Origin: Malacoraja senta | Lineage: Eukaryota | Assembly: GCA_038087875.1 (NCBI GenBank) | Contig: CM075988.1 | Coordinates: forward strand, 4,526,001 to 4,590,000 | DNA: 64,000 bases | Direction of reading: 5' to 3' | Shown: one piece after another, positions 855 to 54,110 of the stretch | How the letters are laid out: each line of letters starts with the position of its first letter | Position numbering within the stretch: position 1 is the stretch's first letter | Translations under genes and position numbers: made by a program | The notes under the pieces: model-generated | What the model was told of the DNA's origin: nothing | Databases searched by the model: none | The model's input: only the letters and a program-made list of their open reading frames with translations

Positions 855-1222
855 TCTGTGTCTGAAGAAGGGTCCCAGCCTGAAAAGTCACCTATCCATG
901 TTCTCCAGAGATGCTGCTGTCCCACTGAGTAACTCCACTGAGTAACTCCAGCAAATAACTATGGATGCTAACATTCTGATGCAGTGTCGCTGACCTGAGA
1001 TGTTAGTTTCTCCAGCATTTTTGTCGGCCTGAGATGTTAACTCTTTTATCCTCTGCACAATAACTGCAATGGGGTGGAGGTGAATCGGACATCAGTCTGA
1101 AGAAAGGTCTAGACCCGAAATGTCACCCATTTCTTCTATCCAGAGATGCTGCCTGTCCCGCTGATTTACTCCAGCATTTTATGTCTATCTTCGGTTGAAA
1201 CCAGCATCTGCAGTTCCTTCCT
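855..1222 (+). mobile_element. Two Penelope-like pseudo-LTR fragments with hammerhead-like core
   Basis: ctgaagaa...gaaa.gtcacc...ccagagatgctgc motif at 862 and 1097; same sequence follows the GIY-YIG ORF at 26650. Confidence 0.75.
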
Positions 1223-1647
1223 ACTCATGAATCGGACAGTACTCCAGCTTCTGGACAGACCATTCAGAAGCCTGATAACAGAGGGGAAGTAGCCGTTCTG
1301 GGTCCCTTTCATTTCAGAGAATGTTATTTTTATGTTTTTCCCAATATAATACAATTATCCTTGTTTTTCATTGACATTTACTGGTTTTATATTGAACCTA
1401 GCCTTGTGTTGTGATCATTGTTTCCAAATTATTCTGTTCTCACATCTGTCATCTTCTACATTTTATTCCCCAGATCAACTCGAGCCACATGTGTTTTATT
1501 GCTGTGTAACATCAGAACGTTATTAATGATTCTAATTCTCCAATTTTGTTCTGAATGGTTCGTGAGTTCACTTATGTCCTATCAGTTTGGGTCCCAATCT
1601 TTTCAAAACATAATATTTATGTTCCAACTGATGTGTCTCATCGTGTG

Positions 1648-1858
1648 CAGGAAGGAACTGCAGATGCTGGTTTTAACCGAAGATCGACACAAAATGCTGG
1701 AGTAACTCAACGGGACAGGCAGCATCTCTGGAGAGAAGGGACGGGTGGTGTTTCAGGTCGATGTCTGAAGAAGGGTTTCAACCCGAAACGTCACCAGTTC
1801 CTTCTCGCCAGAGATGCTGCCTGTCCCGCTGAGTTACTCCAGCGTTTTGGGTCTATCT
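1648..1858. mobile_element. Palindromic (inverted-arm) element made of PLE pseudo-LTR
   Basis: ctggagtaactca.cgggacaggcagcatctctgg on left is the reverse complement of ccagagatgctgcctgtcccgctgagttactccag on right. Confidence 0.85.
1765..1792 (+). ncRNA. Minimal type I hammerhead ribozyme-like core
   Basis: CUGAAGA-A-GGGU(UUCA)ACCC-GAAA-CGUC. Confidence 0.6.
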
Positions 1859-2134
1859 GATGTGGCTCATCAAACGGATGAGTAAGAAAGAGAGTGGAAT
1901 AGCAGACACCGGAAATGCATGGCATGAGGAGAAACTAATGACAACCATTACTGTGTATGATCATGAGGAGATTTTTCACACAGAGGTTGGTGAGTGTATG
2001 AAATGGGTTGCAAAAGGAGGTAGTTGAGGCAGGTACTATCACAAAATTTATAAGGCATTTGAATAGGTACATGGATAGGAAAGATTAGAGAGATATGGGT
2101 CAAACGCAGGCAGGTGGGAACAGTGTACTTGGGG

Positions 2135-3070
2135 TATGGACATAGAGAGCTGGAGCAACTCAACGGGTCAGATCGCATCTCTGGTGAAAAGAAATAGGTG
2201 ATGTTTTGGGTCAAGATCCTTCTTCAGACTGAGAGTCAGGAGAAAGGGAAACTATAGATATAGATGGTGATATAGTGAGATATTGAGCAAATGAATGAAA
2301 GATATGCAGAGAAGTAATACTGATAAAGGGAACAGGGCATTGTTAGGTGTGGGCTAGGTGAAAACGAATAATAGACAATGAGACTCAACAAGGCGGCTTT
2401 GAAGCTGGTATAAGGACTTGGGTGGGAGAGGAACGGATAGAGAGGAAACACAAGGGTTACTTGAAGTTAGAGAAATCCATACCGCTGGGTTGCAGAGTGA
2501 AGTCTGACTATTGATGTGTGATAGATACAGAAAGCTGGAGTAACTCAGTGGGTCAGGCAGCATCTCTGGTGAAAAGGAATAGGTGACGTTTCGGGTCGAG
2601 ACCCTTCTTCAGACCGAGGGAAAGATGAGATTAAGAAGGTACATTGGACAAATGAATGAACGATACGCAAAAAGCAACGAAGATCAAGGGAATGTGGAGC
2701 CCACAATGGTCCATTGTTGGCTGTGGGGAAGGTGATAATGAGTGATACAAACAGAGTAACGCAGCAGGACAACAGTGACACTAGAATGATGGCTGCAGTG
2801 GGTGAGGGACGAAGAGAGAGGGGATGCCAGGGCTACTTGAAGTTAGAGAAAATGTTCATTGCACTGGGGTGTATGCAGCCCAAGTGAAATATGAGCTGCT
2901 GTTCCTACAATTTGCGTTGGGCCTCACTCTGGCCTTGGAGGAGGCCCAAGACAGAAAGGTCAGTATGGGAATGGGAGGGGGAGTTAAAGTTTGGCAACTG
3001 GGAGATCGCGTAGGCCAAGGCGGACTGAGCGAAGGTGTTCAGGTAAAATGATCACCCAGCCTGCGCTTTT
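2135..3070 (-). mobile_element. Penelope-like element 3' region with tandem pseudo-LTRs
   Basis: Reverse strand of GIY-YIG C-terminus (DLSVLGLL..SEA..KL.EQ.LIF) at 2840-3070 and two pLTR copies (2135-2490, 2520-2850). Confidence 0.8.
2585..2612 (-). ncRNA. Minimal type I hammerhead ribozyme-like core (best copy)
   Basis: Reverse complement reads ggu-CUGAAGA-A-GGGU(CUCG)ACCC-GAAA-CGUC-acc; 3-bp helix I, 4-bp helix II, palindromic ACGU helix III. Confidence 0.65.
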
Positions 3071-3307
3071 CCATGAAGCTGTGTCTGTAACTGAGTCAGT
3101 TTGCATTTTACTCCATCTCAGTTGAAGAGATTATAAATTAATGCAAATCTGTGCAGGCCAACCAAAGGAAAAAAAATAATAATAAATGGCAATGCCCATT
3201 GCATTCAGTGTCTAAATGGTGCAGTCACATCTTGTTAAGACATTGACAGCCATGACTGAGCTCATGCCATTTGATGTCTATTCACCATCACTCCGCGATT
3301 TTATCCC

Positions 3308-3900
3308 TTTGGGAGACATGGTTTTGCAAGTTTGAAGAGACAATGACGGGGTTCGGAATCACAGATAACACGTAAGAGAAAGCACTCCCTTACATTATGG
3401 AGGTGATGAGCCACAGGGTATTCTTGAAACATTGTCACCTGCAGCACAGGAGCTGAAGCAACGGTACACTCACTCCCCAGCAGACTGCAAGATATGAGGC
3501 TACGTGTAAAGTTGCACTGGGCAAAGGGCACGAGGAAAACATTGACATACACGGCACACATCTGTGATGACACTGCGAGATCTGACTTCCCTGAACTTGA
3601 GCAAGAACTGAAACTGCGGTTCATTGAAGAAATCATGTCAAAACAATCCCAGCAGAAAGCCCTTGAAAAGATTATCAAACTGTGCCAGCTGCTCACGTTG
3701 GAGAGATCATTGTCATTTTCAAAGAGGAGCGCAGTTGAGGTAGAAAGACCGCAAGACACTGCTGTGAAGAGGATCAGAGGAGAAATTAAACACAGGAGGT
3801 GTTGACTGTGAACAATTGTCAGCATCACCTGTAGAACAGGCTGATCCCTGCTTTGAGCTCCATTGCCAGCTGCAATCAAATCAAAAAATCAACAGCAGAG
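3308..3900 (+). pseudogene. Decayed Ty3/Gypsy-type gag fragment
   Basis: WETWFCKFEETMTGFGITDNT*EKAL/LHYGGDEPQGILETL then DFPELEQELKLRFIE...KALEK...LTLE, matching Gypsy gag N-terminal pattern; stop and frameshifts. Confidence 0.6.
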
Positions 3901-4014
3901 GAAAAGACTGGAAGTCACCGATCTGCAGTTCACCTGGTGGTGGATCTAACGGGCTGTGGAGACCGAGTCCCCGAGTGTATTCAACACAGGGATTGATACT
4001 GAAGAGCTTCTGAC

Positions 4015-5701: not shown

Positions 5702-8081
5702 ATAGACAATAGAAAATAGACAATAGACAATAGACAATAGACAATAGACAATAGACAATAGGTGCAGGAGCAGGCCATTTGGCCCTTCGAGCCAGCACCG
5801 CCATTCAATGTGATCATGGCTGATCATCCCCAATCAGTACCCCTTTCCTGCCTTCTCCCCATATCCCCTGACTCTGCTATTTTCAAGAGCCCTATCTAGG
5901 TCTCTCTTGAAAGCATCCAGAGAACCTGCCTCCACCGTCCTCTGAGGCAGAGAATTCCACAGACTCACCACTCTCTGTGAGAAAACGTGTTTCCTCGTAT
6001 CCGTTCTAAATGGCTTACTCCTTATTCTTAAACTGTGTCCCCTGGTTCTGGATTCCCCAACATCGGGAACATTTTTCCTGCATCTAGCTTCTCCAGTCCT
6101 TTTATAATTTTATATGTTTCTATAAGATCCCCCCTCATCCATCTAAACTCCAGTGAATACAAACCTAGTCTTTCCTCATATGACAGTCCCGCCATCCCAG
6201 GAATCAATCTCGTGAACCTACGCTGCACTGCCTCAATCAGAAGGATGTCCTTCCTCAAATTAGGAGACCAAAACTGTACACAATACTCCAGATGTGGTCT
6301 CACCAGAGCCCTATACAACTGCAGAAGAACCTCTTTACTCCTCTACTGAAATCCTCTTGCTATGAAGGCCAACATTCCATTAGCTTTCTTCACTGCCTGC
6401 TGTACCTGCACGCCAACTTTCAGTGACTTACTACAAGCCAACTACAAGGACGCCCAGGTCTTGCTGTACCTCCCCCTTGCCTAACCTAACCCCATTGAGA
6501 TAATAATCTGCCCCCTTGTTTTTGCGGCCAAAGTGGATAACCTCACATTTATCTATATAATCCTGCATCTGCCACGCATCTGTCCACTCACTCAACCTGT
6601 CCAGGTCACCCTGCAACCTCCCAACATCCTCTTCGCAGTTCACACTGCCACCCAGCTTTGTGTCATCCGCAAACTTGCTAGTGTTGCTCCTAATTCCCTC
6701 CTCCAAATCATTAATATATATGGTAAACAGTTGCGGCCCCAACACCGAGCCTTGCGGCACTCCACTCGCCACTGCCTGCCATTCTGAAAAGGACCCGTTC
6801 ACTCCTATTCTTTGCTTCCGGTCTGCCAACCAATTTTCTATCCATGTCAACACCCTACCCCCAATACCATGTGCTCTAATTTTAGTCACCAGTCTCCCAT
6901 CCGGGACCTCATCAAAGGCTTTCTGAACGTCTAGATACGCTACATCCACTGACACCCCGTCATCCATTTTATTTGTCACATCCTCAAAAAATTCCAGAAG
7001 ATTAGTCAAGCATGATTTCCCTTTCATAAATCCATGTTGACTTGGACTAATCCTTTTACTGCTATCCAAATGCCCCATTATTACCTCTTTAATAATTGAC
7101 TCCAGCATCTTTCCCACCACCAAAGTCAGGCTAACTGGTCTGTAATTCCCCGTTTTCTCTCTCACTCCTTTCTTGAAAAGTGGGATAACATTAGCTATCC
7201 TCCAATCCACAGGAACTGATCATGAACTTATTGAACATAGGAAAATGATCACCAATGCGTCCACTATTTCTAGAGCCACCTCCCTGAGGACCCTGGGATG
7301 CAAACCATCAGGCCCAGGGGATTTATCATCCTTCAGTCCCATTAGCCTACCCAATACTATTTCTCGCCTAATGAAAATTTATTTCAGTTCCTCTACCCCC
7401 TTAGATCTTCTGTCCTCCAGTACATCTGGGAGATTGTTTGTGTCTTCCTTAGTGAAGACAGATCCGAAGTACCTATTCGACTCTTCTGCCATTTCCTAGT
7501 TGCCCATAATAATTTCACCCGTGTCTGCATTCAAGAGACCCACATTTGACTTTGATATTCTTTTTCCCTTAACATATCTATAGAAGCTTTTACTGTCCTT
7601 CTTTATATTCATGGCCAGCTTCCCCTCGTACTTCCCGTATTGCTCGTTTTGTTTCCTTCTGTTGTCCTATGAAAGTTTTCCAATCCTCTGGTTTCCGGCT
7701 ACTCTTTGCTGTGTTATACATCTTTTCTTTTAGTTTTATTCTATCCCTAACTTCTCTTGTCAGCCACGGTTGCCTCCTACTCCCCTTAAAATCTTTCTTC
7801 CTTTTTGGAATGAAATGATCCTGCATCTTCCACATTATTCCCAGAAATTCCTGCCATTGCCGTTCCACCGCCATTCCTGCTAGGATCCCTTTCCAGTCTA
7901 CCTTGGCCAGCTCCCCTCTCATGCCTTCATAGTTCCCTTTGTTCAACTGCATCACTGACACTTCCGATTTAACCTTCTCCTTCTCAAATTTCAGATTAAA
8001 ACTAATCATATTATGATCACTACCTCCAAGCGGTTCCTTTACCTCGAGTTCTCTTATCATATCTGGTTCATTGGACAACAC
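5702..8081 (-). mobile_element. CR1 (HER1-like) LINE, 5'-truncated: end of EN, RT, 3' UTR, (CTATTGT)n tail
   Basis: ORFs with NYRPVSLT, QHGF, GVPQGSVLGP, KFADDTKLGG, YRALVRPHLEYCVQFWSP; tandem gacaata tail 5702-5761. Confidence 0.95.
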
Positions 8082-9983: not shown

Positions 9984-10674
9984 AGGGCCTGTCCCACTTA
10001 CACGTCCTTGGCTCGCAAATTACGCGACTTCGTGGTCGCTTGAGGCGTACGGGCACCGTATGGCCGCGCGAGGCCGGTCCCACTTAGAAGCGTGGAGGGG
10101 TATGGAGTTGTGCGCGGCTGGTCCCGACATCGCGCGGGGTTCCAAATTTCTTGCAGTGAACAAAATCTTTGCACGCCAACGGCCTGTCACGGAACTGACG
10201 GCCAAAGTGGGACAGGCCCAAGACCCTGGCGCGACGCAATGTCTCACCTCCAACAGCAGCAGAAGCAGGCAAACGATCGCCGAACTCGGCCTGGGGCTCA
10301 CGGCCGTTGTGGTCCGGATCCGCTTCCACTTCTACTCCCAGAGCGGGGCCAAGAAAATTGAAGATAGACACAAAATGCTGGAGTAACTCAGCGGGACCGG
10401 CAGCATCTCTGGAGAGAAGCAATGGGTGACGTTTCGGGTCGAGACCCTTCTTTTCAGACTGAAGAAGTCTCGACACGAAACATCACCCATTCCTTCTCTC
10501 CAGAGATGCTGCCAGTCCCGCTGAGTTACTCCAGCTTTGTGTCCATCTTCAAATGACATCACGCGCTCCAGACAGCTGTGCGTATGCATGTAATCGCGCT
10601 CGACCGTCTCGGCTCAACGCGACCACGAGGTCGCGTAATTTGCGTGCCAAGGACACGTAAGTGGGACAGGCCCT
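9984..10674. mobile_element. PIF/Harbinger-type MITE with nested palindromic PLE element (10357-10552)
   Basis: TIR agggcctgtcccacttac / gtaagtgggacaggccct with long imperfect subterminal IR; TTA TSD. Confidence 0.85.
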
Positions 10675-12464: not shown

Positions 12465-12735
12465 ACAGAGATACAGCGTGGAAATTGCCCTTCGTCCCAC
12501 CGAGTCCACACCGACCAGCGATCCCCGCACATTAACACACGAGGGACAATTTTACAATTTCATCAAATAACCTACAAACCTGTACGTGTGGGAGGGAACT
12601 GGAGCACCCGGAGAAAACAAATGCAGGTCATGGGGAGAGCGTACAAAGTCCGTACAGACAGCACCCGTAGTCAGGATCGAACCTGGGTCTCTGGCGTTGT
12701 AAGGCAGCAACTCTACCGCTGCGCCACCGTGCCGC
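12465..12735 (-). mobile_element. HE1-like V-SINE
   Basis: Reverse complement of SINE head, V-domain and tail. Confidence 0.9.
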
Positions 12736-13055
12736 TCCACGCCCAAAGTGTTACTAAATCCTCCTGTAATCTTGAAAGACTCGACTGAATTGTGTTAAAG
12801 AATTCTCTCTTCAATTTTTGATGTCCATGGCCTTTGTTAAATTATGTAAACACCTGGAATAAGACAAGGGGTCAGAAAGTAGGGAGGTTAATGGGATAAT
12901 TTAGAATTCAGATACAACAAGCTAAGCACAATGATCTTTCAAACTGAAAATGAACATAGCCAACCAATTAAGCAGCCAGCACTGGTAGTTACTGCCTACT
13001 CAGCAAGTCAGGATCCAGGGCAATGTTTTATTTCAATGCACAGACCTTAAGTAAA

Positions 13056-15221: not shown

Positions 15222-15380
15222 GAGGAAGGAATTGCAGATTCTGGTTTACACCGAAGATAGACACAAAAAGCTGGAGTAACTCAGCAGGTCAGGCAGCATT
15301 ACTGGCGAAAAGGAATGGGTGATGTTTCTATAGAGAGGCTGCCTGTCCCGCTGTGCTGCTCCAGCTTTTTATGTCTATCT
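15222..15380. mobile_element. Palindromic PLE pseudo-LTR element
   Basis: atagacacaaaaagctggag ... ctccagctttttatgtctat inverted arms. Confidence 0.75.
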
Positions 15381-17158: not shown

Positions 17159-17479
17159 CACTGCTCAAGGCTAGCACTGAAGTTTACTGGGCTGATAAAG
17201 GGCGAGCATTGAGCGCACCAATTCCTGATTAACTAGACTATCGATTGCCAGGTAAACAAACTTTGCAGATGAGGCCACTCACTGACTATTCTTGTCCTCA
17301 TGCAGCTATCCCAGTGCCCTGATCCCAATTTCATTTGCATTCACGAACTGTCAGAGGAGGTAGTTGAAGCAAGTGCTATAACAGCATTTAAAATGCATGG
17401 ATATTAAGGTTTGGAGGGATATGGGTCAAGCAGCTTAGGGTTTACCTGGGTCGGGAGTCCCTCCAGTACATCACCATCT

Positions 17480-17830
17480 ACATCTCTCATTTTCCATTCC
17501 CCCTGACTAGTCTGAAGAAAGGTCTCGACCCGAAACGTCACTCATTCCTTCTCTCCAGAGATGCTGCCTGTTCGATCCAGACTATGGGTGCTGTCTCTAC
17601 AGAGTTTATACGTTCTCCCCGTGACCTGCGTGGGTTTTTATCCGGGTTCTCCGGTTTCCTCCCACACTCCAAAGATGTGCAGGTTTGTCGGTCTATTGGC
17701 TTTGATAAAAACATTGTAAGTTGCCCCTGGAGTGTAGGATAGTGCTGGTGTATGGGGTGATTGCTGGTCGGCACGGACTCAATGGGCTGAAGGGCCTGTT
17801 TCCGCACAGTACCTCTAAAGTCTAAAGTCT
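17480..17830 (+). mobile_element. PLE pseudo-LTR (hammerhead core 17512-17539) fused to V-SINE
   Basis: ctgaagaaaggtctcgacccgaaacgtc then junction gctgcctg|ttcgatcc into SINE. Confidence 0.8.
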
Positions 17831-19255: not shown

Positions 19256-19879
19256 TAAAATTGCCCCTAGTGTGTGTAGGGAGTGGTTGCAAAAGTGGGA
19301 TAGTATAGAAATAGCACCACCGCTGGGCCATTGTGCCACTCTAACTCTGTGCTACCTACTGAGTTTTATACTGTTTATTAAAAAAAGACATAATCATATT
19401 TGAAATCTTCTCATGTGTGACTGCCAGTGTGGGATAAAGAGCGATTGCCTTGTGCACTGGAGCAAATGGAACAACAGACAACCATAACTCAACCCTCAGA
19501 CTACACAATTGACTGCATCTCCCAGGACACTTAAAATGATTCATAGAAAGGAGGTCACATGCTGGAAAGGATAACTCCTGTCTGCTTCTCCTCCTAGAAA
19601 AATTACTAGGTCACTTCCATCTGAGTGAGATTGTTGCTGTGTTCCTGTTAGCTGGTTTTTCATGCAGAAGCTCCCTCTCAATTCTGACACAAGGACATGC
19701 AGATGCTGGAGTCTTGCCTAGAACACAACGTGCCGGAGTAACATACTGGGTCAGGCAGCATCTCTGGAGAACATGGATGAACCATAAGATATAGGAGCAG
19801 AATTAGGCCATTCAGCCCAACGAGTCTACTCCACCATTGGATCATGGCTAATTATTTTTTCCCTCCCAACCCCATTTTC

Positions 19880-20038: not shown

Positions 20039-21025
20039 AACATTAGCAAATTTGCGGATGACAAAGCTGGGTGGCAGTGTTAAGCTAAGAGTTACTGGGT
20101 TAAGCTAAATGGCTACTACAGTGTGAACTGCGAGGAGGATGCTATGAGGATGCAGGGTGACTTGGACAGGTTGGGTGAGTGGGAAGATGCATGGCAGATG
20201 CAGTTTAATGTGGATAAATGTGAGGTTATCCATTTTGGTGGCAAAAACAGGAAGGCAGATTATTATCTAAATGGTGTCAAGTTGGGAAAAGGGGAAGTGC
20301 AACGGGATCTGGGGGTCCTTGTTCATCAGTCACTGAAAGTAAGCATGCAGGTACAGCAGGCAGTGAAGAAAGTGAATGGCATGTTGGCCTTCATAACAAG
20401 AGGAGTTGAATATATGAGCAAAGAGGTCCTTCTGCAGTTGTACAGGGCCCTAGTGAGCCCACACCTGGAGTATTGTGCACAGTTTTGGTCTCCAAATTTG
20501 AGAAAGGACATTCTTGCTATTGAGGGAATGCAGCGAAGGTTCACAAGGTTAATTCCCAGGATGGCGGGACTGTCATATGTTGATAGAATGGAGCGGCTGG
20601 GCTTGTATACTCTGGAATTTAGGATGAGAGGGTATCTTATTGAAACATATAAGATTATTAAGGGTTTGGACATGCTAGAAGCAGGAAACATGTTCCGGAT
20701 GTTGGGGGAGTCCAGAACCAGGGGCCACAGTTTAAGAATAATGGATAAGACAATTAGAACGGAGATGAGGAAACATTTTTTCACACAGAGAGTTGTGAGT
20801 CTGTGGAATTCTCTGTCTCAGAGGGCGGTGGAGGCCGATCTCTAGATGCTTTCAAGAGAGAGTTATATAGAGCTCTTAAAGTTAGCGGAGTCAGGGAATA
20901 TGGGGAGAAGGCAGGAATGGGGTCCTGACTGTGGATGATCAGCCATGATCACATTGAATGGCGGTGCTGACTCAAAGGGCCGAATGGCCTCCTCCTGCAC
21001 CTATTGTCTATTGTCTACTGTCTAA
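20039..21025 (+). mobile_element. CR1 LINE, 5'-truncated (RT C-terminus to tail)
   Basis: ORF 20123-20845 (MQFNVDKCEVIHFG, PHLEYCAQFWSP, FFTQRVVSLWNSL); ctattgt tail. Confidence 0.95.
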
Positions 21026-25785: not shown

Positions 25786-25889
25786 CTCCCTCCCATTGTG
25801 TCCATTTATACCTCACGCTACCTCGGCAAGGCCAGCAGTATAATCAAGGATGAGTCACAACCTGGCCACTCCTCTTCTCCCCTCTTCCA

Positions 25890-33392: not shown

Positions 33393-33589
33393 CAAAATTA
33401 ATCTCCCTACTGCTGTCTTTCTCTTCTCTCCTTCTTCAAACAGATCTTTGGCCAACAATCTCAACTTTCTTTGGATCACTGTTGGGTTTCTTTGTTCCTT
33501 TGGTGAGACATTCTTTAGTTGCCTGACAAACCTAGCGGAATATCCAAGTGTAATCGGCAACAAATTTCAGTAATGAAACCCACCCCAGG

Positions 33590-36299: not shown

Positions 36300-39200
36300 C
36301 TCAGGGCAACAGTGCAGATGGAGCAGCTCATCACACAGAGCCTGACCCGACAGAAATATGTGGCAACTGGAGGGATGTGAAGACATTCATGTGGGGGACG
36401 AGGTGCTGGAGCTGGCCGATACATCCTGGTATAGGGCCATTGGGGGCCGTATCAGCGCAGGTATCCCAGGGGCCTGCAGCAGCACCTGTTTAGGGCTGCC
36501 TACGAATCGCCCTCTCTAAGGAGGGGAGCGCGAAAGGTCAGATGTAACTGACTTCAGATTCTAAAGATGTCCGTGGAACATACTGGAGCACATGTGTGCC
36601 GGCAGTGAACAGCGCTATCAGGGGGATATGAGAGACAGCCGCCGAATCTTCTATACAGGTAAGGTCTATTCAACAGTAAAAATCTGGGACGAAGCAAAAG
36701 CTGTCGGACCAATCAAGACCAAAGGTGGGCAAAGATTCATCGGTTCAGAACGCATCCCATGCCTTCATCGGCAGTCAGCGGTTCACTGAAGCTGGTGGCA
36801 GCATGACAGCTGGGCAGAGGTTCCACGCACCCTACCAGTCCTACTCAACAAGGTGGGTCTGGCACTTCCGAAACATGGGTAAATGGACTACTCACAAGTT
36901 GGTAATAGTTACACTTGTTTGTACAGCACACAAAGGATAAAGGCATTGTCATCTGCTTAGAGGCATCTAACCATGTAAAACTGCACAATACTAGCATGCC
37001 AAGCAAGTTTGGAATTAGGGCCAGAATTGTCGTTTTCAAGACAAGCTCAGAAATTGGGCCAGAGTTATCGTGCGAAGCACCCAGGGAATGATGGCAGGAG
37101 TGGCCTGTTCATTATGAAAAATTGAGAAAGTCGTTTAACTCGCATATGAACTTTCCAAATAGGAAACTTCTTTACTGACTAACAACGGATTCATAAGGGT
37201 CTCAAAGATCCATTCTATGCAGTTCCCATTACAGGGATCATCGGAGACATTGGAAATTATCAAAAGGCAATGATAACTGTACTAATAACAGTAAAACACT
37301 GCAAATTGGGATAAACTATTTCCCCAGGTTATTTAACTAATTAGTTAAATCGGTGTTTGGACTCAGAGTTCGAAAACACTTGTTATGTCTTGACTGGATG
37401 ATATTCTAACGCTATATTTTGTTAAAATCACCTGTTTCAGCCTCAAACTGTATTTGAGATATTGGCATCCATCCAGTTAACTTTAAGTTGTTACCAAATA
37501 GACTTGTTGGTCATTGGGATTTACCTTTAACTATTAATTGGCCGATGACTCCACCTTGTGGCACAAAATTGGAGTTAATAGAAACCTGTTATTAAGCTGA
37601 ATTCTATTCATCAAGAGTAATTGCCAATATGGTAGCTGTGATTCAGTAACAACCTCTCATATGACATGTAGGTCATTGTTAACAGGCTTATGCTATGACT
37701 AGCTGAAGCTACCTGAGTCACAGTGATGAACAAACAGTATTCAACATTGCTCCAGTAGTTTGGTCAGTCGAATTTCAGGTATTTTACAAACTGATGCTAA
37801 GGGCTCTAAGGTGGAAAGCTGCGAATGTCATGTCTAGTTTGGAGGTGGAGGAGATTTGCATGAGTTGCCAATTCTTCAGTTATTGGTATCAAATAGCTAT
37901 AGACACTAGATGCATCCCATAGGTAAAGGGCTATTGAGCGAATATACATAATCTACATGCTCAACTTCAAGTTGAGACAGTACGGTGGTGGCAGATGTTA
38001 GTCACATGGCAATCAAGTTAAAGTATCCTGTAATAATTTACCTAATCTCCTTTGCCACTGGTGTATTATCAAGTTCAGATCGATGACAACACAGAATTGG
38101 TGTTGGATCACAAAGTATTTATGAAAGTATGGTTCAATGAAACACCAAATATCGACATGTTGGTTTCATGCTTCTTCACTGATTACAAAAATATGTGGCA
38201 TAACAGTGTTGAGAGATACATTCTCGCTACAAGAAAGTGGAATGTTCTTTTATGTCTTCCTCCATTTTGCCTCATCAGTCGGGTCTTGAAATAAAGCCAG
38301 CAAGATCTCGCTTTAGTTTTTGTACTGTCTGACTGGCTATGCAGCCATGATTCTCGCTTCCATCAGGCATAATAATACACACATATACGGTTATTCTAAA
38401 AAACTAAAACTTTGCTGGTTCAAACTGTGGTTCAGGAAACCAGCCTCTGCATGATAAAATCAATTTGTTAACTTGCAGATTCTGAATAGACTGCCCTACG
38501 GCTCAGGTTGTCACATCAATCCAGGTATGTGCTCAATGCAGAGTGCAGCTATAGCACCAAAAAAGCAGTACTTTTCCTATTCAGGAGATGGGAAGCGGTT
38601 TTGTTTAATGTTAATGTTACATTTAATACGGTACAGATTACTGACGTTTTCCAGTTCATTCTTAAATGGTCTTCTGAGAATAATTGAGTTTAGGGCCATT
38701 AACTGTGCCAAACGTGTCTTCCCATCATATTAGCTGCAGCACACAGGACCCACTCTGTCGGGTTTCAACCCTGGATATCGAGTTTGTAAACGATATCTTT
38801 AACACAAGTTCTCCCAGTACAAGTATACGCAGTATGGGATATTGACATTGTGTTAATAATACTTCACCAGGGGCCAGCTACTTCCTTAGTCATGACACCA
38901 GTATCAGCACAACGAGTGCAGACATTGCAAAAGTTGCAGCTAGATAGGATGGAAGTGGCTGCAGATGCCATTACGTGTTACATTTCTGGTCTACACAAGC
39001 AGAGCAGACCAGGGGTGACAGGGTTTAAGATCATATTTCCAGCATACCCCACGGACTCACGTCTATGTGTGAGGGCACGTTTGCTATATTATATCAAGGC
39101 CACCAGAACCCTAAGAGGTGTGTACTCAGCATTGTTTATTAGCCAGGAACAACCACACAAGAAAAAGTCGGTTCAGACTATTTCAAGGTGGCTGAAGCTG

Positions 39201-39920
39201 ATTCTGGTTTATGCAGGTATTAACACTGACAATTTTACATTTCATTCCACCAGGGCGGCATCAACGTCAGCAGCCAGGGCAATGGACGTTCCCATCGGCC
39301 ATATCCTCGCGGCGATAGGATGGTCAAGTGAATTGATTTTCAAAACATTTTTTTACTATAGGCCGATTGCCCACCCGGGGCTATTTGCCCATCCTGTTTT
39401 GCGTCCACTTTAGCCTCCCCTGAGATAGAGGGGTTGCTATTGATTTTCTTTATTAACGTAAACCATTAATACGTTTAAATCAATGTCATGTGTAATGCAT
39501 TGTTGATTATTCACTCATCCTGAGTCAATCGATGCAGTGAGACACCGGGATTTGAATCTACGGCATGAAATCACAGAGCTTTGAACTCTTCACAGAATCA
39601 CTCACGTGACTCCAAAGTAAAATAGTAAGATTAAATGAGAACTTACCAGTTTCAAGTTTGATCTTTATTTTATGAGGAGTTACGATGAGGGATTACGTGC
39701 CCCCCGCTCCCAACCCTCATAAAAGTCATCTGGTAGTTCTAGTCTTCTCTAAGTCTTACCATGTTACTTCGACTGCTATTATCTGTGATTTCACACCGCT
39801 GCTTTGAAGATTGACACGCATGCGCGCTGGCGGGGCTTCTTCACGTAATCCCTCATCGTAACTCCTCATAAAATAAAGATCAAACTTCAAACTGGTAAGT
39901 TCTCGTTTAATCTTACTATT
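36300..39920 (+). mobile_element. Second DIRS1-like element, heavily decayed; left end not found
   Basis: Remnant RT (~37100-37540), MT (LPPFCLISRVL), YR ORF 38850-39413 (SAQRVQTL, HSTRAAST, GWS); ICR 39588-39699 and right extension 39842-39920. Confidence 0.85.
38850..39413 (+). pseudogene. DIRS tyrosine recombinase C-terminal part
   Basis: VSAQRVQTLQKL...KQSRPG...TISRWLK...FHSTRAASTSAA...GWSSELIFKTFFY. Confidence 0.85.
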
Positions 39921-41939: not shown

Positions 41940-43945
41940 GGTCGAAAAAGTCCAAAGTCACCAACCTGAACGACTACCGCCCGGTTGCCCTAACTCCAAT
42001 CCCAATGAAGTGCTTCGAAAGGCTGGTCCTCTCCCATATCAAATCCAGCATCCCTGCCTCACTGGACTCCCATCAATTTGCATACAGGGCAAATAGATCA
42101 ACAGAGGATGCCATCTCTCTGGTTCTTCACACTGTCCTGACTCACCTGGACAGACAGGGCACGTATCTTCATTGACTATAGCTCTGCATTCAATACGGTC
42201 ATCCCCACCAAGCTCACCACCAAACTCCACCAGCTAGGCCTCAGCTCGCCGATATGCGATTGGATCCTGAACTTTCTGACGGAGCGACCGCAGGCAGTGA
42301 CACTGGGCCCGCACCTGTCCTCCACTATCACCCTGAGCACCGGCACACCACAGGGCTGTGTACTAAGCCCCATGCTCTACTCCCTCTTCACTCACGACTG
42401 TGTCCCTGCATTCGACACCAACATCATCGTGAAGTTTGCAGACGACACAACAGTGATTGGGCTGATCACCAACGGTGATGAAACAAAATACAGAGCGGAG
42501 GTGCAGAACCTGGCGGACTGGTGCGCTCATAACAACTTGTCACTAAACACCTCCAAGACCAAGGAGCTGATTATTGACTTCAGGAGGTCCCAATATGGAG
42601 AATACGCCCCAATCTCCATTTACGGGGAAAGTGTGGAGAGAGTGTCCATCTTTAAGTTTCTGGGCACTCACATTTCAGAGGACCTCACATGGTCCACCAA
42701 CACCGCTGCGCTGGTCAAGAAGGCACAGCAACGACTGTTCTTCCTGAGGACATTAAAAAAGACTGGTCTGCCCCAACAGCTGCTGACACCATTCTACCGC
42801 TGCACCGTTGTCGTTGGGGCCTAGCTCCGTGGAGCGGCCTCCGACCGGGACGACCTGGGGGCTCCAGTCGCGGAGCCTGTGGAGCTGCGGACTTACCATC
42901 GTGGGGCTGGCTGGCCTCGGAGCGTGAGGAGCGGTGGTGGCTCGCTGCTGCGGCCCGACTCCGGAGCTCCAGCTGCAGACCTGTGGACTATGATATCGGG
43001 AGCTCGCGGGTCCAGGTGAGAGACCGCTTTCTGGAGCTCCCGCAACGCAACTTCTCCCGCCCGTGTCACTGGGTTGGAACGACCCGGAGCGGGGCCGTAA
43101 ATCGCCCGGCGCGGCTTTAATGGCCGCGGGACATTCCAGCGCCCGCCGGAGGCTCCAACTTGGTGGCTTTTGGGCCGGAGCGAGGCCATACACCGCCCGG
43201 CGCGCCCTCAACGGCCATGGGACTTAACTTTGCCCGCCTGGGGCTTCAACATCGGGAGGAGAATGGGGAGTGCAGGGGAGAGAAAAGACTTTGCCTTCCA
43301 TCACAGTGAGGAGGAGATTCACTGTGATGGATGTTTTTCTGTGGATTGAATTGTTTGTGTGTCGTGTGGGAATTGTTTTGTTTGTATGGCTGTGGAAATG
43401 GAATTTTGTTTGAGCCTCTTTGAGGTTCAAATGGCAATAAATTCTAATCAATCAATCAATCAATCAATCAATATTAACGTATGGCATCTCTGTGTGGTAT
43501 CTCAGCTGCACGGAGGCGGAGAGGAGAGCTCTTCAGCGCGTCGTCCACAGAGCGCAGAGGATCATTGGGACAGAGCTACCAGCCTTGGAGGGCATCTCCC
43601 ACACACGGTGCCTCAGGAAGGCCGTCAGCATCCATAAGGACTCATCACACCCTTGTAACGGACTGTTTGAACTACTTCCCTCCGGCAGACGTTACAAGGT
43701 CTTCTACGCCTGAACCTCCAGACTCAGAAACAGCTTTATTCCAAGAGCTATAGTGGCTCTGAACCGGCCCTGCTGAGTGCCCCCCCACCAACCCCCCGGA
43801 CAGTCTCCCTCGGATGGTCACGTCACTCAGCTTGCTTATTTATTTATCTTACTTTTCTTGTACATCGCTGGAGCTGCATACTAAATCTCGTTGCATTGAC
43901 GTGCAATGACAATAAAAGATATTATTATTATTATATTATTATATT
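41940..43945 (+). mobile_element. Rex1/Babar LINE (RT to tail), interrupted at 42807-43470
   Basis: [72 protein letters not shown]; (ATT)n tail. Confidence 0.93.
42807..43470 (+). mobile_element. GC-rich non-autonomous retroposon inserted in Rex1/Babar
   Basis: Interrupts Rex ORF; 13-bp hairpin, AATAAA and (AATC)n tail. Confidence 0.7.
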
Positions 43946-46272: not shown

Positions 46273-46294
46273 GTTAAAAGGATCAGTGCCAATG

Positions 46295-46440
46295 AGACAA
46301 AGTGCTGGATTAACTCAGCGGGTCAGATAGCATCTCTGCATCACAAAGTGGTGGCTGAAGAGTGCCGATCCAATACATCGCATATCCATCTCCTCCAGGG
46401 ATGCTGCCTGACCCGATGAGTTACTCCAGCACTTTGAGCT
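46295..46440. mobile_element. Palindromic PLE pseudo-LTR element
   Basis: caaagtgctgga.taactca.cgggtcag ... ctgacccgatgagttactccagcactttg. Confidence 0.75.
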
Positions 46441-46754
46441 TTTTTCTATATGGTTATATCAGTCAGTTGCCGTTACACATGTAAACGGATCATCTTAAAT
46501 TTCCCAGAATGCTGTGAGGATCCAAATGATCAGTAATGATCAACAGATGGTGTGCTGAGGGCAATGTGGGAGGAGATATTAATGTTGGCACAAACACGGG
46601 GACGTTGGGATTTAACTGCAAAATACACAGTGCTGGAGGAACTCAATGGATAAAGCAACAACTGCAGAGGGAATCGACAGGCAATATTTCAGATGGAGAC
46701 CGCCTTCAGATTGATTGGAGTAGGGAGGATAAAAATGGAAATATGATGGAAATT

Positions 46755-48275: not shown

Positions 48276-48600
48276 TCTACAACAAAGGTAATTAACATCT
48301 CGGATGTCCTAGAGTGGAAACTTTCATCTTAGGAGCAGATGATCCGCACTGAACAGGATCGAACCTGGGTCTCTGGCGCTGTAAGGCAACTCTACCATTG
48401 CATCACCGTGCCACCCTTGGCACCAATAGTTAGGATCGAACCCTGGACTCTGACATTGTAAGGCTACTGTGCCACTGTGCTGCCTTAGTGTGGCAGATGT
48501 GTGGGAGATGGAACAACTGAAAGTAAGAGAAGGCATTCCAGCAAGAGGGGAGGTGGGAGGAGGTGTAGTGAAGGTAATTGTGGGAATAAGTGGGTTTTAG

Positions 48601-49184
48601 AGGAGTCGTCATTAAATAGTCTGTTCCCGGTGATGGAGACAGAGAGATCAAGAAAGGGGAAAGAGGTGTCAGAGATTGTGTCTTTGTTCCCTCAACTAAC
48701 AGACTCCCACACCCAGTGGAACCTCTCCTTACCCTCAACAACTTCGCTTTTGACACCGCTCTTTCTTCATGTCAAAGATGTAGCCATGGACATTCACATG
48801 GGCCCTTGCTATGCCTGTCTTTTGGTTGCTTACATTGAACACTCATGGTTCCAAGAGTATTCCGGTCCAACTGCCCAACTCATTTCCCACCAAAAATAGA
48901 CACAAAATGCTGATGTAACTCAGCAGGACAGGTAGCATCTCTGGATAGAAGAAATGGGCGATGTTTTGGAGTGAGACCCTTCTTCAGAGTACACATTCTC
49001 CACCATATTGCTGACTGCCTCGGGACTGTCTTCAGAACTCATTGGTTTCATTTAATGCCCTGTCCCACTTGGCGATTTTTTCGGCGACTACCGGCATCAT
49101 TGATTGATGTATCAGGTCACTGAAACATCGCAGCGTGATGCGGCGGTGACGCACCATGTTGACGTATGACGCGCGATGTTTTTT
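48601..49184 (+). repeat. Left copy of ~580-bp direct duplication flanking L1
   Basis: Near-identical to 51384-51955. Confidence 0.95.
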
Positions 49185-51383
49185 TTGTTGTTCTTGTTGT
49201 TTTTTTGTATTTTTTATTTTATTATAAGTATTGTACATTATAATAATCTGCAATAACGTAAGTTTATACTTTTCTTGTACCACTTCTTATTTTTAAACTT
49301 TAATAAGAAAAAAGGATAGAAAGAGTTAGTAAAGATAGTAAGTGAGTGATTGAAAGAGTGGTCCAGGAACACCCATATGGACCTAAACCACAAGAAATAG
49401 TTAGAGAAAAAAAAAAAGAAAGAAAAAGAGAAAAACCAAAAGGAGGAAAAAGAAAAAATAAAGCATAAGATAAGGTAGGACAATATGAAAGGGATGTGCC
49501 TACTTCATATCTGTACTCACCCCTCGCCAGGTCCTGAAACCATTTATTATCAACATTTTGTTGCACCCTATGTTTGTAATAAGTCAATAAATGGAGACCA
49601 AATCTTTTGGAATTGGTCTTGTTTACCTGCTAAGAGGAATCTCATATCTTCTAGATGTAACAATTCTGACATATTAGAAGTCCACATTTTTGTCGTTGCC
49701 GTGGGAGCATTTTCCCAAAATTTCAGTATACGTTTTTTTGCCGTTATTAAGCCAAAATTAAGGAAACTCCTTTGAAACGAAGTCAGCTCCAAACTGGCTT
49801 CGATTGTTCCAAAAATAATCAGTTCTGCATTCGGTTTCAGTTTTATTTTAAATAATTTACTGAAAATTTCAAAAATTTCATTCCAACATTTTTGGATTTT
49901 TATACAAAAAACAAAAGAATGTGCTATAGTTGCTTCTTGGGTTAGGCATTTATCACAGATAGAAGAGGTATTTGGGTAAAATTTACTTAATTTAACTTTC
50001 GAATAGTATAATCTATGTAAAATGTTAAATTGAATTTGAGTATGTGTTACGTTAATCGAGCATTTATGCACATATAACAGGTGTTTATCCCAACTCTCTT
50101 TCGAGATTTTTATAGCTAGTTCCTGTTCCCATTCACTTCTAATCCCATCAGATGATGGAATATCTATGTTTAAAATGGAATTATACAGGTATGATATTAA
50201 ATTAGCTGATTCCGCTTTTATATTTATTATCTCATCTAATAGGTCTGGAGACATATTTTGATATTCTCGTGTATAATTTTTCAAATAGTCACGTATTTGA
50301 AAGTATTTAAAATATTGATTACTACTCAAGTTGTATTTAAGTTGTAGTTGGTGAAATGTTAAAAAACTTCCATTATCATACATATCTCCAAATGTTTTAA
50401 TTCCTACTCTATCCCAATTTATAAAAGATTTATCTATCATAGAAGGTTTAAACGAAGGGTTGTTCATTATAGGTGAGAGAAGCGATAGATTTCTTAATTT
50501 TAAAGTTAATTTTATTTGTTTCCAAATTCTAATTTACAATAAATAATTGGATTTTTACTGTATATTGTATTCTTCATTTTTGTTGGTGAGAGAAGGATCG
50601 CTCCTATGTTAAAAGGGGAACAATCCTCTCTCGCCATTACTATCCAATCCACCTGCTGGGCCGAATTGTCCAACAGGTGAATCATATTTTTGACATTTGT
50701 GGCCCAGTAATAATATAAAAAATTAGGGAGTGATAATCTGCCAGATTCTTTAGGTTTACACAAATGTTTTCTTTGGATTCTGTGGGATTTATAGTCCCAT
50801 ATAAAGTTTGTAATATCAGCATCCAATTAAAAAAAAAAAAAATTTGGTAAATATATTGGTATTGACTGGAATAGATATAAAATTTGTGGTAAAAAGATCA
50901 TTTTTATAGCATTTATTCGGCCTATAAGAGACATCGGAAGAGTTTTCCAGAATTTAATCAGTATGTTTAATTTATTGAGTAAGGGCATATAGTTTGCATT
51001 AAATAAAGATTTATATTTTCTAATAATTTCAATTCCCAAATATTTAAATTTTTCTGAAGCGATTTTAAAAGGGAATTTTAACAGGTGTGTTGGGTCTTGA
51101 GGTTTAATCGTTATAATTTCACTTTTATTCCAATTTATTCTATATCCTGAAAAGGATCCAAATTCCTCTATTAAATTTAATATATTTGGTATACTGATTT
51201 GTGATTTTGTGATATATAGTAGTACATCATCTGCGTATAATGATATCTTATTATTTGAGTATTTTGTATTATACCCATGGATATTCTGATGTGTTCTAAT
51301 ACTTTCCGCTAACGGTTCTATTACACGAGCAAATAGAGGTGATAATGAACATCCCTGTCTATTTCCCCTTGATAATTGAATAA
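49185..51383 (-). mobile_element. L1-clade LINE, 5'-truncated within RT
   Basis: RQGCSLSP, LYADDV, SLIGRINAIKMIFLPQILYLF, C-terminal CDKC...HSFVFC zinc knuckle; A-rich tail at 49185-49225. Confidence 0.95.
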
Positions 51384-51955
51384 AGGAGTCGTCATTAAAT
51401 AGTCTGTTCCCGGTGATGGAGACAGAGAGATCAAGAAAGGGGAAAGAGGTGTCAGAGATTGTGTCTTTGTTCCCACAACTAACAGACTCCTACACCCAGT
51501 GGAACCTCTCCTTACCTTCAACAACTTCGCTCTTTCTTCATGTCAAAGATGTAGCCATGGACATTCACATGGGCCCTTGCTATGCCTGTCTTTTGGTTGC
51601 TTACATTGAACACTCATGGTTCCAAGAGTATTCCGGTCCAACTGCCCAACTCATTTTCCACCAAAAATAGACACAAAATGCTGATGTAACTCAGCGGGAC
51701 AGGTAGCATCTCTGGATAGAAGAAATGGGCGATGTTTTGGAGTGAGACCCTTCTTCAGAGTGCACATTCTCCGCCATATTGCTGACTGCCTCAGAACTGT
51801 CTTCAGAACTCATTGATTTCATTTAATGCCCTGTCCCACTTGGCGATTTTTTCGGCGACTGCCGGCATCATTGATTGACGTATCAGGTCACCGAAACATC
51901 GCAGCGTGATGCGGCGGTGACGCACCGTGTTGATGTATGACGCGCAATGTTTTTT
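51384..51955 (+). repeat. Right copy of ~580-bp direct duplication flanking L1
   Basis: Near-identical to 48601-49184, 12 bp shorter. Confidence 0.95.
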
Positions 51956-52060
51956 CGAGTGTCGCAACGTTTTTTTGTCGCCGCTGGATTTTGAAATGTT
52001 CAAAATCTTTTGGCGACACTGATATGACGCCGATAAAAATCGCCAAGTAGGACAGGCCCT
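51826..52060. mobile_element. PIF/Harbinger-type MITE (left part duplicated at ~49055-49184)
   Basis: gccctgtcccacttggcgatttt / aaaatcgccaagtaggacaggccct. Confidence 0.85.
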
Positions 52061-52320
52061 TTACTTTATCACTAACTTCCACCCTGCTCTCAAATTCACC
52101 TGGACTATCCCTGACAACATTCTCTCTTGATCTCTCTGTCACCATCATAGGGAACACACTATCGAAAGACATGTACTAAAAACCCACTGACTCCCCACTA
52201 ACCCTTCCAGCTGAGACAGAGGTTCACATGCATCTTTTCAAACCTCATCTACTGCATTCATTGCTCCCAATCCAGCCTTCTTTACATTAGTGAGATCAAA
52301 CGAACAATTTACCACTATTT

Positions 52321-53080
52321 TGTTAATCCTGGCCAAATTGGAGAGGCTAGGACTTTAAAATGGGGTAAAAGCTTCAGGGCTGCTGGAAGATTTGGTCAAT
52401 TTGGAATCGCTCTCTGCAGAGCTGGGTCAAGCTGCAGAGAGGTGCCAGTGTGTCTAGAGCCTAGATACAAGTTGCAAGAAAAGAATAAGAACATCTGCAG
52501 ACACTATCAATTAGGTGCAAAATGCATAGAATGGATTGGATGGCTGCAAACCAGACATACACCTTGTAAATAATGTTGCCGAGTTCTACTTTGCCGAGTG
52601 TTGATTGGATGAGGTATTGAGCCTTGTCTGGGTTTCTTGCTGATCAGGGTAAATGTTTCTAAGTTGGCTTCCTTGCGCAATCCGTTTTGAATACAATGTA
52701 TTGTGCTGTTGTATTATTGGGTTAGGGAAATGTCTGTTATTATGAGGTTAATCGATATCTGTAATTGGGTTATTAAGAGACCACCCCTATTTGGTTCGGC
52801 CCCTCGAGGTCCCGGGACATATGAAAGTCCGCTACCATGAGGTCCAACGTCGATCTTCTGGGAGAGCGCTTGGGACTGCGTGACCTTCTGGAGTGTCTCT
52901 GTCTGAGCGAGGCCTAGAGGGGTTGAACAGGCTGACACGAGGATTGAACCCGCGGTGGGATAGGTACAGTAGTTGAACTGTAACGCGCTTTGTTAAAATA
53001 AAGATTAGTTGTTTCAAGTGCTTGATTCAGTGTTTTGACTGAAACTAGACTGGGGGGAAGTTTAGTATGAGCAATTATCA
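52321..53080 (+). mobile_element. Solo LTR (760 bp) inserted in a PLE fragment
   Basis: TG...CA ends, 4-bp flanks attt/atct, AATAAA at ~52997; PLE GIY-YIG sequence continues on both sides. Confidence 0.75.
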
Positions 53081-53174
53081 ATCTTGCTCAACACTTGTGC
53101 TCGGTCAGGCAAGGCCTGCTTTATCTCTTGGTTGCTAACCATTTTAGTTTGCCTTCCCATTCCCATACTGACCT

Positions 53175-54110
53175 TGTGTGTAGGAAGGAACTGCAGATGC
53201 TGGTTTAAACCGAAGATGGACACAAACAGTTAGAGTAACTCATCGGGTCAGGCAGCATCTCTGGAGAAAAGGAATAGGTGACATTTCGGGTCGAGACCCT
53301 TCTTCAGACTGAGAATCAGGGGAAAAGGAAATGAGAGGTGCAACACCAATCCCTATACCTCCTCCCTTGACTCTGTCCAGGGACCTAGACAGTCCTTTCA
53401 GGTTAGGCAGAAGTTCATTTGCACCATCTCGAACCTCATCTACTGTATCAGTTGTTCAAGACGTGGACTCTTATACATCGGCGAGACCAAACGCAGATTG
53501 GGCGATCGTTTCGCTGAACACCTTCACTCAGTCTGCCTCGGCCTACCAGATCTCTCGGTTACCAAACATTTTAATTCCCCTTCCCATTCCCACATTTTAC
53601 CTTTCTCTCCTGGGTCTCTTCCATTGTCAGAGTGAGGCCAAACACAAATTGGAGGATCAGCACTTCATATTTCGTTTGGGCAGCGGTATGAATATTGATT
53701 TCTCTAACTTCAAGTAACCCTCGCATTCTCTTTCTCTCCATCCCTCCCTCACCCAAAGTCGTCCTGTAGAGTCTCATTGTCTGTACTGCATTTTCACCTA
53801 GCCCACAGCTAACAATGGCCAGTTTCCTTTATCATTGTTGTTTTTTTGCATATCTTTCATTCATTTGTACTATATCACCGTCTGTATCTCCGTTTCCCTT
53901 TCCCCTGTCTCTCAGTCTGAAGAAGGTTGTCGACCCGAAATGACACCTATTCCTTTTCTCCAGAGATGCTGTCTCACCTGCTGAGATATTCCAGCTTTTT
54001 GGTTTATTCTACCCACACTGATCTGTCTGTCCTGGGCCTCCTCCATTGCCAGAGTGAGGCCACATGCAAACTGGAGGAACAGCACCTCATATACTGCTTG
54101 GGACACTTAC
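53175..54110 (+). mobile_element. Penelope-like element with inverted 5' pseudo-LTR (53175-53340), GIY-YIG region and direct pseudo-LTR
   Basis: NLIYCISCSRRGLLYIGETKRRLGDRFAEHL; hammerhead cores at 53280-53307 (-) and ~53917 (+). Confidence 0.88.

Follow-up and report, generated by a model that had tools for sequence, protein, structure and literature searches.

Minimal hammerhead ribozymes of metazoan Penelope-like elements are described as type I cores lying in the pseudo-long terminal repeat (pLTR). Their hallmarks are an extra nucleotide lying between 9 and 10.1, a G10.1-C11.1 pair and a palindrome at 15.2-16.2, and their activity is low even in dimers (Cervera and de la Pena, 2014, PMC4209133). 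In fish they were reported from Neptune, Poseidon and Xena elements (PMC4209133). Here we describe a repeat family with such a motif in 64,000 nucleotides of Malacoraja senta DNA (assembly GCA_038087875.1, contig CM075988.1, positions 4,526,001 to 4,590,000 of the forward strand; hereafter the window, numbered from its first letter). With a probability of about 0.75, we read these repeats as decayed 3′ end (pLTR) insertions of a Neptune-type Penelope-like element, each carrying a minimal type I hammerhead and copied from uncleaved RNA.

The window family shares with the hammerheads of PMC4209133 the type I core in a pLTR, the extra nucleotide, G10.1-C11.1 and the palindrome, as well as the occurrence mostly as dispersed single copies and opposite-strand pairs. 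It differs from the Schistosoma consensus given there in having 4 bp in helix II (there 7-8 bp) and 2 bp in helix I (there 4-5 bp). In its 2-bp helix I and its 2-nt palindrome it resembles the Drosophila virilis variant of the same paper, without the helix II bulge of the latter. Every sequence hallmark of the Penelope minimal hammerhead that we tested is present in the predicted structure, and the class is already known. Cartilaginous fish are not named in the available text of PMC4209133 or in the one supplement of it that was searched. The short-stem-III hammerheads of Lunse, Weinberg and Breaker are likewise described as associated with Penelope, with a palindromic, very short stem III and cleavage as dimers (via PMC6765202); the likeness is one of description, and the window family may or may not be among them. 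It may already be listed there, in supplement file 1 of Cervera and de la Pena, in preprint supplements or in Repbase/Dfam. An earlier note on this DNA proposed that such a hammerhead would cleave only as a dimer or with extra pairing; the dimer part is itself the published model (PMC4209133; PMC6765202).

In the Anolis Poseidon element PAc, two internal starts of reverse transcription define a 30-40-nt tail, and both strands are cut and extended (Frangieh, 2024, PMC11167929). Uncleaved RNA was the main substrate, with no RNA ends reported at the cleavage site, and in the purified system the hammerhead cleaved only with protein (PMC11167929). The window family is like PAc in its two 3′ ends, its both-strand insertion products and, by inference, its uncleaved template. 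Unlike it, PAc belongs to the Poseidon clade and its hammerhead overlaps the start of the open reading frame (ORF), and the available text of that paper mentions no fixed 5′ end at the ribozyme edge. With the Neptune-clade insertions of Craig (2021, PMC8557442) the family shares a C-terminal GIY-YIG domain with CCHH residues, a linker, 5′ truncation, an inverted 5′ copy and a one-sided tail. Unlike those, its 5′ truncation is concentrated at one point, and insertions bounded by target-site duplications (TSDs) lie outside microsatellites.

The function of Penelope hammerheads was called "still unclear" (Craig, 2021, PMC8557442). The window family adds a genomic record, apparently of very many insertions, of uncleaved copied RNA that would start just upstream of the core. 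This record argues against cleavage and circularisation as the source of the copies and is in line with what was seen in vitro for Anolis.

The motif and its host element

The degenerate pattern CTGANGA-N8-24-GAAA has 14 matches in the window against 3.67 ± 2.26 expected, and none of 100 shuffles reached 14. Ten of these belong to one repeat family and the remaining four are at about chance level. A profile built from 11 window copies and searched against the window returned 33 segments of the element's 3′ end; 32 were kept, one being dropped that lies inside a duplicated block of 587 bp (95% identity). The core is spanned by 23 independent segments of the 32. All nine sites listed in the earlier note were found at their positions and on their strands. 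The repeated 28-nt motif that it described stands as a family, but is exact in one copy only, 2585-2612(-). Deviations from it include AAGT for ACGT at 862, G10.1>A at 1097 and 17512, ATAT at 26653, ATGT at 53280(-), two extra A inside the core at 10430(-), and the loss of U16.1 and of one helix II pair at 53917. An intact core, a 4-bp helix II and a self-complementary helix III occur together in 4/23 copies (1765, 2612-, 26653, 53307-), the only ones that by their sequence could still cleave, and just two of these retain ACGU; a fifth copy flagged by the script, 10430(-), was excluded for the insertion of two A in its core. Strict cores come to 1 per 6.4 kb, below the density of more than one per 5 kb put forward previously, which is exceeded (about 1 per 2.8 kb) once decayed cores are included.

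The family has CUGAAGA, an extra A, a 4-bp helix II, GAAA, an ACGU palindrome and C17, and the order CUGANGA ... GAAA ... UH is that of the type I arrangement. For the family as a whole helix I, previously given as 2-3 bp, has 2 bp; a third pair fails to form in 19/23 copies, although it is present at 2585-2612. The extra nucleotide between 9 and 10.1 is A in 20/23 copies, and the 10.1-11.1 pair is G-C or G-U in 18/22. The palindromic 15.2-16.2 ACGU is found in the window family and in a distant family described below, CpG change having decayed it in most window copies. We considered whether a subfamily with a fixed ACAU lies behind the helix III changes. G16.2>A is found in 14/27 copies versus 6/27 for C15.2>T, but the two arms of an inverted pair are often unlike at this site, and CpG decay is enough to account for the changes, though such a subfamily may exist. 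A type III or trans topology via the GUC at the 5′ edge was rejected by eye, no helix I or III pairing being seen.

The hammerhead lies about 190-200 nt 3′ of the stop codon in the two longest copies. ORF sequence stands directly upstream in 5/32 segments (C3 of the core at 2227-, 2612-, 26653, 34594 and 53917), so that the placement downstream of a GIY-YIG ORF noted earlier applies to these and not to the other 27. A Pfam GIY-YIG match covers 53342-53596 (E 1.4e-4), and CCHH residues and a CX3CxxC linker are read in the translation of the GIY-YIG ORF remnants, the linker at about 26.07 kb(+) and 24.4 kb(-). A CX2-5CxxC linker between reverse transcriptase (RT) and endonuclease (EN) is described as diagnostic of the Neptune and Nematis clades (PMC8557442). 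Neptune is preferred because Nematis was not found in the vertebrates sampled in the part of a preprint available to us (Li, Clavereau and Pollet, 2026, bioRxiv 10.64898/2026.07.22.740005). Among 45 candidates 17 are relatives, the best named protein matches being from stingray (Hypanus), little skate (Leucoraja) and sharks (Heptranchias, Rhincodon), with 60-69% identity, by which the host would probably be a batoid; a whale-shark protein with RT and GIY-YIG aligns to RT and EN remnants across the window. By these sequence features the element is probably a Neptune-type Penelope-like retrotransposon, a clade assignment that rests on the linker motif rather than on an RT tree.

The identification of the motif as a minimal type I hammerhead in the 3′ pLTR of a Penelope-like element, as the earlier note had proposed, is supported because of the GIY-YIG ORF remnants together with conservation and helix I covariation relative to the distant family; its cleavage is predicted only. 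The first ATG after the predicted cleavage site (profile 304-358; e.g., 53256-53258(-)) opens only a 17-codon frame in the consensus.

Conservation and decay of the hammerhead

Non-CpG positions of the core are off consensus in 11/230 cells versus 106/1043 in the tail (p=0.011), i.e., they are roughly half as variable, which points to selection in the source elements. Of the check proposed earlier, extra conservation and covariation, the former is thus seen within the window in mild form and the latter is not (see below). Most window copies show neutral-looking decay.

For depth data, contigs of four runs (X1, X6, X18, X24) were aligned to the copy 53160-53345 in place of a genome-wide map; X18, marked "probably DNA", and X24, with 34 pieces, are uninformative on transcription. 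The catalytic G12, which lies in a CpG, is changed in 9/26 window copies; by contig depth the figure is 14-16%, which falls among the values for tail CpGs (11-25%). The loop II CpG (53292-53293, or +18/+19 counted from the putative start discussed below) shows changes in 3-8% of the contig depth, compared with 8-25% for the remaining CpG positions tabulated. Among window copies it is no better kept (6/24 and 6/25 changed). Its low change in contigs could reflect selection on source copies, sequence context or alignment bias.

Three loci (L001-L003) of one distant Penelope family are 43-50% identical to the EN piece of the window. Their hammerhead lies about 85 nt after the stop codon and has the same core and helix II as the window family, with ACGU in 2/3 loci, a different, 5-nt loop II, and ACA instead of CAG before the core. 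Helix I is compensatory at both pairs (G-C>C-G, U-A>A-U), and the hammerhead (28-29 nt, 82-83%) is the sole similarity of the 3′ untranslated region (UTR) and tail at the homologous place. The hammerhead fold is probably under selection, because core, helix II and ACGU recur in the distant family, with the helix I pairs swapped, while no other UTR sequence can be aligned. The helix I change is supportive of this rather than conclusive, and helix II, being identical in both families, holds no covariation information. L001 also contains an inverted 5′-truncated copy with a hammerhead of its own (1755-2305(-), C3 at 1843) upstream of the main ORF 2501-3960(+). Exact motif scans of viral and metagenome contigs gave 0 matches in each; related loci were found in 3/139 candidate stretches of metagenome contigs and 0/40 of viral contigs.

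Architecture of the copies

The dominant unit, overlooked in the earlier note, is a short stub that begins at the 5′ edge of the ribozyme and is often part of a head-to-head pair. Most copies are such stubs of 100-135 nt, about 1 per 2 kb in the window, and 16 segments form eight head-to-head pairs. The copies and their parts are as follows.

860-937(+): stub starting 2 nt before C3; its core, at 862, has a non-palindromic helix III (AAGT).
1081-1091(+): left copy of an 11-bp perfect TSD; right copy 1228-1238.
1092-1227(+): complete solo stub starting with TCAGT, putative +1 at A1094; core 1097-1124 (G10.1>A, ATGT); extends to the distal end of the tail.
1628-1642 and 1857-1871: 15-bp TSD with 1 mismatch, of the pair 1643-1858.
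1643-1858: head-to-head pair; arm 1643-1761(-) with tail, arm 1763-1858(+) tailless with an intact hammerhead at 1765-1792.
2136-2480(-): ORF end, 3′ UTR and dead hammerhead (C3 at 2227, G12>A); in partial tandem with the copy 2520-3058.
2520-3058(-): GIY-YIG remnant (2791-3040), 3′ UTR and the best-preserved hammerhead.
2585-2612(-): exact minimal hammerhead; helix II GGGU/ACCC, 4-nt loop, helix I of 3 bp here; predicted scissile bond 2585/2584.
10360-10550: head-to-head pair sharing the palindrome 10454-10462; one arm with 2 extra A in the core, the other with a 2-nt deletion in helix II.
15223-15380: head-to-head pair truncated within and after the core.
17464-17570(+): copy that includes 50 nt of UTR upstream; core 17512-17539, G10.1>A, ACGT kept.
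19691-19771(-): tail-only fragment.
21069-21138(-): decayed copy with an upstream pyrimidine tract.
22057-22160(+): stub from the 5′ edge of the core; G12>A.
23900-24105: head-to-head pair, arms starting at G5 and in helix II; abuts the end of an older GIY-YIG remnant, 24124-24465(-).
25622-25786(+): copy that has a pyrimidine tract, a tail and, at 25659, a mutated hammerhead.
25881-26704(+): longest ORF remnant, with CX3CxxC linker, GIY-YIG with CCHH, 3′ UTR and hammerhead 26653-26680 (AUAU, palindromic); similarity ends abruptly at 26704.
31409-31455(+): tail-only fragment.
34307-34679(+): ORF end, UTR and dead hammerhead (34594).
34690-34896: head-to-head pair, both arms from the CAG before the core, both dead.
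46294-46436: head-to-head pair, one arm from C3; dead.
46632-46725(-): old, strongly decayed copy.
48889-48988(-): solo stub in a Penelope RT remnant (48762-48884, +); weak 15-bp TSD with 3 mismatches; duplicated at 51660-51762.
53176-54007: inverted insertion within an older GIY-YIG remnant; its pLTR arm, 53176-53337(-), has the hammerhead 53280-53307 (AUGU) and a putative +1 at 53310, and is joined to a GIY-YIG remnant 53336-53714(+), UTR and dead hammerhead at 53917.
54362-54453(+): old decayed copy with an uncertain 5′ boundary.
55670-55705(+): weak tail-only fragment.
62743-62952: head-to-head pair beyond the range covered by the earlier note; 16-bp perfect TSD, 62731-62746 and 62954-62969.

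TSDs are clear in 3/24 units (11, 15 and 16 bp; one solo stub and two pairs), all three scoring above the best of 150 random position pairs (score 9). Another 3/24 have weak TSDs, namely the stub duplicated at 48.9/51.7 kb and the 53.2-54.0-kb unit; the other units were negative. The 3′ ends fall into two clusters about 36 nt apart, at profile 344-354 (15/32) and 378-387 (8/32), which match the optional 30-40-nt "tail" of Penelope. In a tree of 28 segments, which has low support, short copies do not form one clade but fall in several sequence groups.

The insertions at 23900-24105, 48889-48988 and 53176-54007 sit in or against older Penelope ORF remnants, which suggests a preference for inserting into the element itself. 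A 587-bp block, 48598-49184, is duplicated at 51381-51955 with 95% identity and holds rearranged Penelope RT remnants of both strands and one hammerhead stub.

The 5′ boundary and the copied RNA

The 5′ ends of the copies cluster 0-5 nt before C3, with 13/23 at-risk segments stopping within 14 nt at the core's 5′ edge. Such clustering arose in 0/20,000 simulations under a uniform hazard and had P=0.0035 under a harsher null, values that are optimistic, given that the arms of a pair depend on each other and that two of the boundaries are doubtful. The 5′ ends after GUC that the earlier note suggested looking for are absent at the DNA level, where none of the 32 segments begins at the scissile bond. 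Contigs of related genomes give a similar picture. Pieces aligning to 53160-53345 number 246,836 (X1) and 297,571 (X6), and among those listed the best-supported 5′ loose ends of X1, X6 and X18 lie at 53309, 53310 and 53312, i.e., 2, 3 and 5 nt before C3. The flanks of these loose ends are heterogeneous, and of the listed pieces 22/32 stop within 53306-53314. Since a type I hammerhead cuts after the core, copies that start before it would have been made from uncleaved RNA. The copied RNA, as far as these boundaries tell, was uncleaved and began just upstream of the core. Given their density in the window, the stubs probably form a large class of repeats in the genomes of skates and rays.

The boundary coincides with promoter-like sequence. 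If the A three bases before C3 is taken as +1, the working consensus matches the initiator TCAKTY at 6/6 positions and, at +18, CGANC (Bridge part I) at 5/5, with 9/12 for the motif ten element and 5/6 for the downstream promoter element. The full initiator is also present in 4/8 scored copies. The summed promoter score of 20 is the highest of 30 offsets, no other of which exceeds 14, and is reached at 0/115,148 background positions and by 0.15% of random hammerheads of the same geometry. An internal TATA-less promoter is known in Penelope of D. virilis, where the start lies well upstream of the hammerhead (PMC2377424). In the window family the fixed 5′ end may be the start of the RNA, set by a TATA-less RNA polymerase II promoter overlapping the ribozyme, for which we see not quite an even chance. 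The ribozyme would then lie within the first 33 nt of the RNA.

We extend this tentatively, and with more doubt than belief, to a hammerhead overlaid on an internal RNA polymerase II promoter with +1 three bases before C3. In such a case the cassette of promoter, ribozyme and tail, about 100-135 nt long, may spread as a very-high-copy non-autonomous retroposon (it is represented by some 250,000-300,000 contig pieces per genome run). The ribozyme might then act as a decapping switch gated by protein or dimer and not as a template processor. The nearest precedent is Pr77/L1TcRz of Trypanosoma L1Tc, a short 5′ promoter-ribozyme common to non-autonomous derivatives (PMC3383444), a parallel only if the 5′ end is indeed a promoter. 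The hepatitis delta virus-like ribozyme of L1Tc makes its cut at the 5′ edge of the ribozyme itself and remains part of the element (PMC3383444), whereas a type I hammerhead would be lost from the sequence downstream of its cut. In the literature searched we found no report of an overlap between a Penelope hammerhead and a promoter, nor of a Penelope-derived short interspersed element (SINE) in skates or other elasmobranchs.

The anatomy seen in the DNA can be combined with enzymology borrowed from the Anolis element. Accordingly qualified, pLTR RNA, perhaps begun at the initiator, would be bound by the element's protein, which, going by published Penelope biochemistry, would nick both target strands and start reverse transcription at either of two internal RNA sites. 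With uncleaved RNA as the template, one primed DNA end would yield a solo stub and two a head-to-head pair, some pairs being joined via palindromes at the motif edge; any pLTR copy could in this way yield a 100-135-nt non-autonomous retroposon. The hammerhead would be carried uncleaved into the copy and then decay. In source elements GUC cleavage, which like promoter use we infer, may be gated by a second hammerhead and/or the element's protein, and may remove a 31-nt leader with the core or cut tandem read-through RNA. It would not be the step defining the copied RNA.

A number of observations weigh against this explanation. The 23 window copies show no covariation (score 0.144 vs 0.176 shuffled), as is expected of copies decaying after insertion, and the covariation between families concerns two base pairs in two families, with 6 window copies hand-picked as the best preserved of 24. 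Among 11 Rfam matches at E<=5 none is a hammerhead, and single-strand folding z-scores are unremarkable (-1.55 to +1.02). Nearest-neighbour energies of the best copy give -13.5 kcal/mol for a double-hammerhead dimer versus -25.3 kcal/mol for an inactive helix-II duplex, and the dimer is also less stable than two monomers in this model. Neither a full-length element nor an ORF start was found in the window, and the RT remnants are short. As to the 5′ boundary, X1 depth falls across it from 23.7 to 1.5 million, but edge effects of the alignment and the weighting of depth to young subfamilies confound this drop, and the loose ends at 53312 partly represent a subfamily with another upstream tract. 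Bridge part II matches at only 2/4 positions for the start at C3-3. The promoter match is post hoc, relies on consensus motifs largely from Drosophila, and is absent from the distant family L001-L003.

Alternative explanations

The fixed 5′ end could have arisen not at a transcription start but by arrest or template switching of the RT at the self-complementary 5′ edge (TCAG-N-CTGA, an upstream CUGA/UCAG hairpin, helix II) or at a bound protein. We consider this unlikely, at perhaps the level of a serious minority view. In the pair 10360-10550 the junction falls exactly on the 9-nt palindrome that the arms share; 6/8 pairs have at least one arm with its start at profile 245-258, and four further arms start at 269-276, in helix II or GAAA. 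However, solo TSD-bounded stubs start at the same edge without a partner (1092; more weakly 48988). The local hairpins are weak, a folded ribozyme would be expected to stop the RT at its 3′ edge, and the match to initiator and CGANC would be left unexplained.

The pyrimidine tract and CAG that precede helix I in long copies resemble a 3′ splice site, and stubs might then represent spliced RNA joined to short or host exons. The intron of D. virilis Penelope (PMC2377424) is described as ending at the 5′ end of helix I (PMC4209133), and exon ends in AG or G would be expected to give the same loose ends at 53309-53310. Against this, TCAG is retained in the TSD-bounded stub at 1092, where no exon sequence separates the motif from the TSD, the consensus of loose ends lacks a common 5′ exon (agreement 0.31-0.39), and the distant family has no CAG at this place. 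We regard splicing as improbable.

Slightly less credit still is due to a retrozyme-like cycle, in which tandem short units would be cut by dimeric hammerheads, circularised and re-inserted. The best-supported listed joint does run 134 nt back, from 53310 to 53177 (68 contigs in X1, 63 in X6), but the letters between same-strand joints are not known, so adjacency is not established. Non-LTR retrozymes derive from pLTRs and are present in the one chondrichthyan sampled (Li, Clavereau and Pollet, 2026, bioRxiv 10.64898/2026.07.22.740005), and the window family is like them in its non-coding pLTR-derived units, type I hammerhead and many monomers. Unlike them, as they are defined by head-to-tail arrays, it has no such array of the short unit among the 33 window segments and is dominated by head-to-head pairs; the absence of copies beginning at the scissile bond also speaks against the cycle.

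That the motif is merely hammerhead-like and kept as a promoter or protein-binding element is very improbable: the decay of G12 at the level of tail CpGs, the better kept loop CpG of the contigs, the lack of an Rfam match and the unfavourable dimer energetics would fit it, but in the distant family core, helix II and ACGU are conserved and helix I covaries while the promoter motifs are missing, any retroposed copy would be expected to decay neutrally once inserted, and the loop CpG is not favoured within the window.

Other features of the window

Just past the point at 26704 where Penelope similarity is cut off, a run of ORFs at 27264-30576(+) includes an RT (Pfam RVT_1) and a weak Dam-methyltransferase match (E 0.041); its last ORF presumably codes for a tyrosine recombinase. 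The run probably represents a DIRS-type retrotransposon that is still fairly intact. Another remnant resembling a recombinase is located at 38790-39413.

A second abundant short repeat has (TAAAC)n-type tails (e.g., 12586-12736, 33203-33397, 55303-55570); we take it to be probably a tRNA-derived SINE of cartilaginous fish. RT fragments resembling those of long interspersed elements (LINEs) lie between the two copies of the 587-bp block (49568-51489). Further LINE-type RT fragments are located at 6431-7219(-), 20084-20845(+), 42141-42824(+) and 63222-63689(-). Two of these have an additional match to Pfam ALKBH8_N, a domain that is probably derived from a retroelement. A 125-codon open frame at 3428-3805(+) has no evident repeat character and is possibly a host exon.

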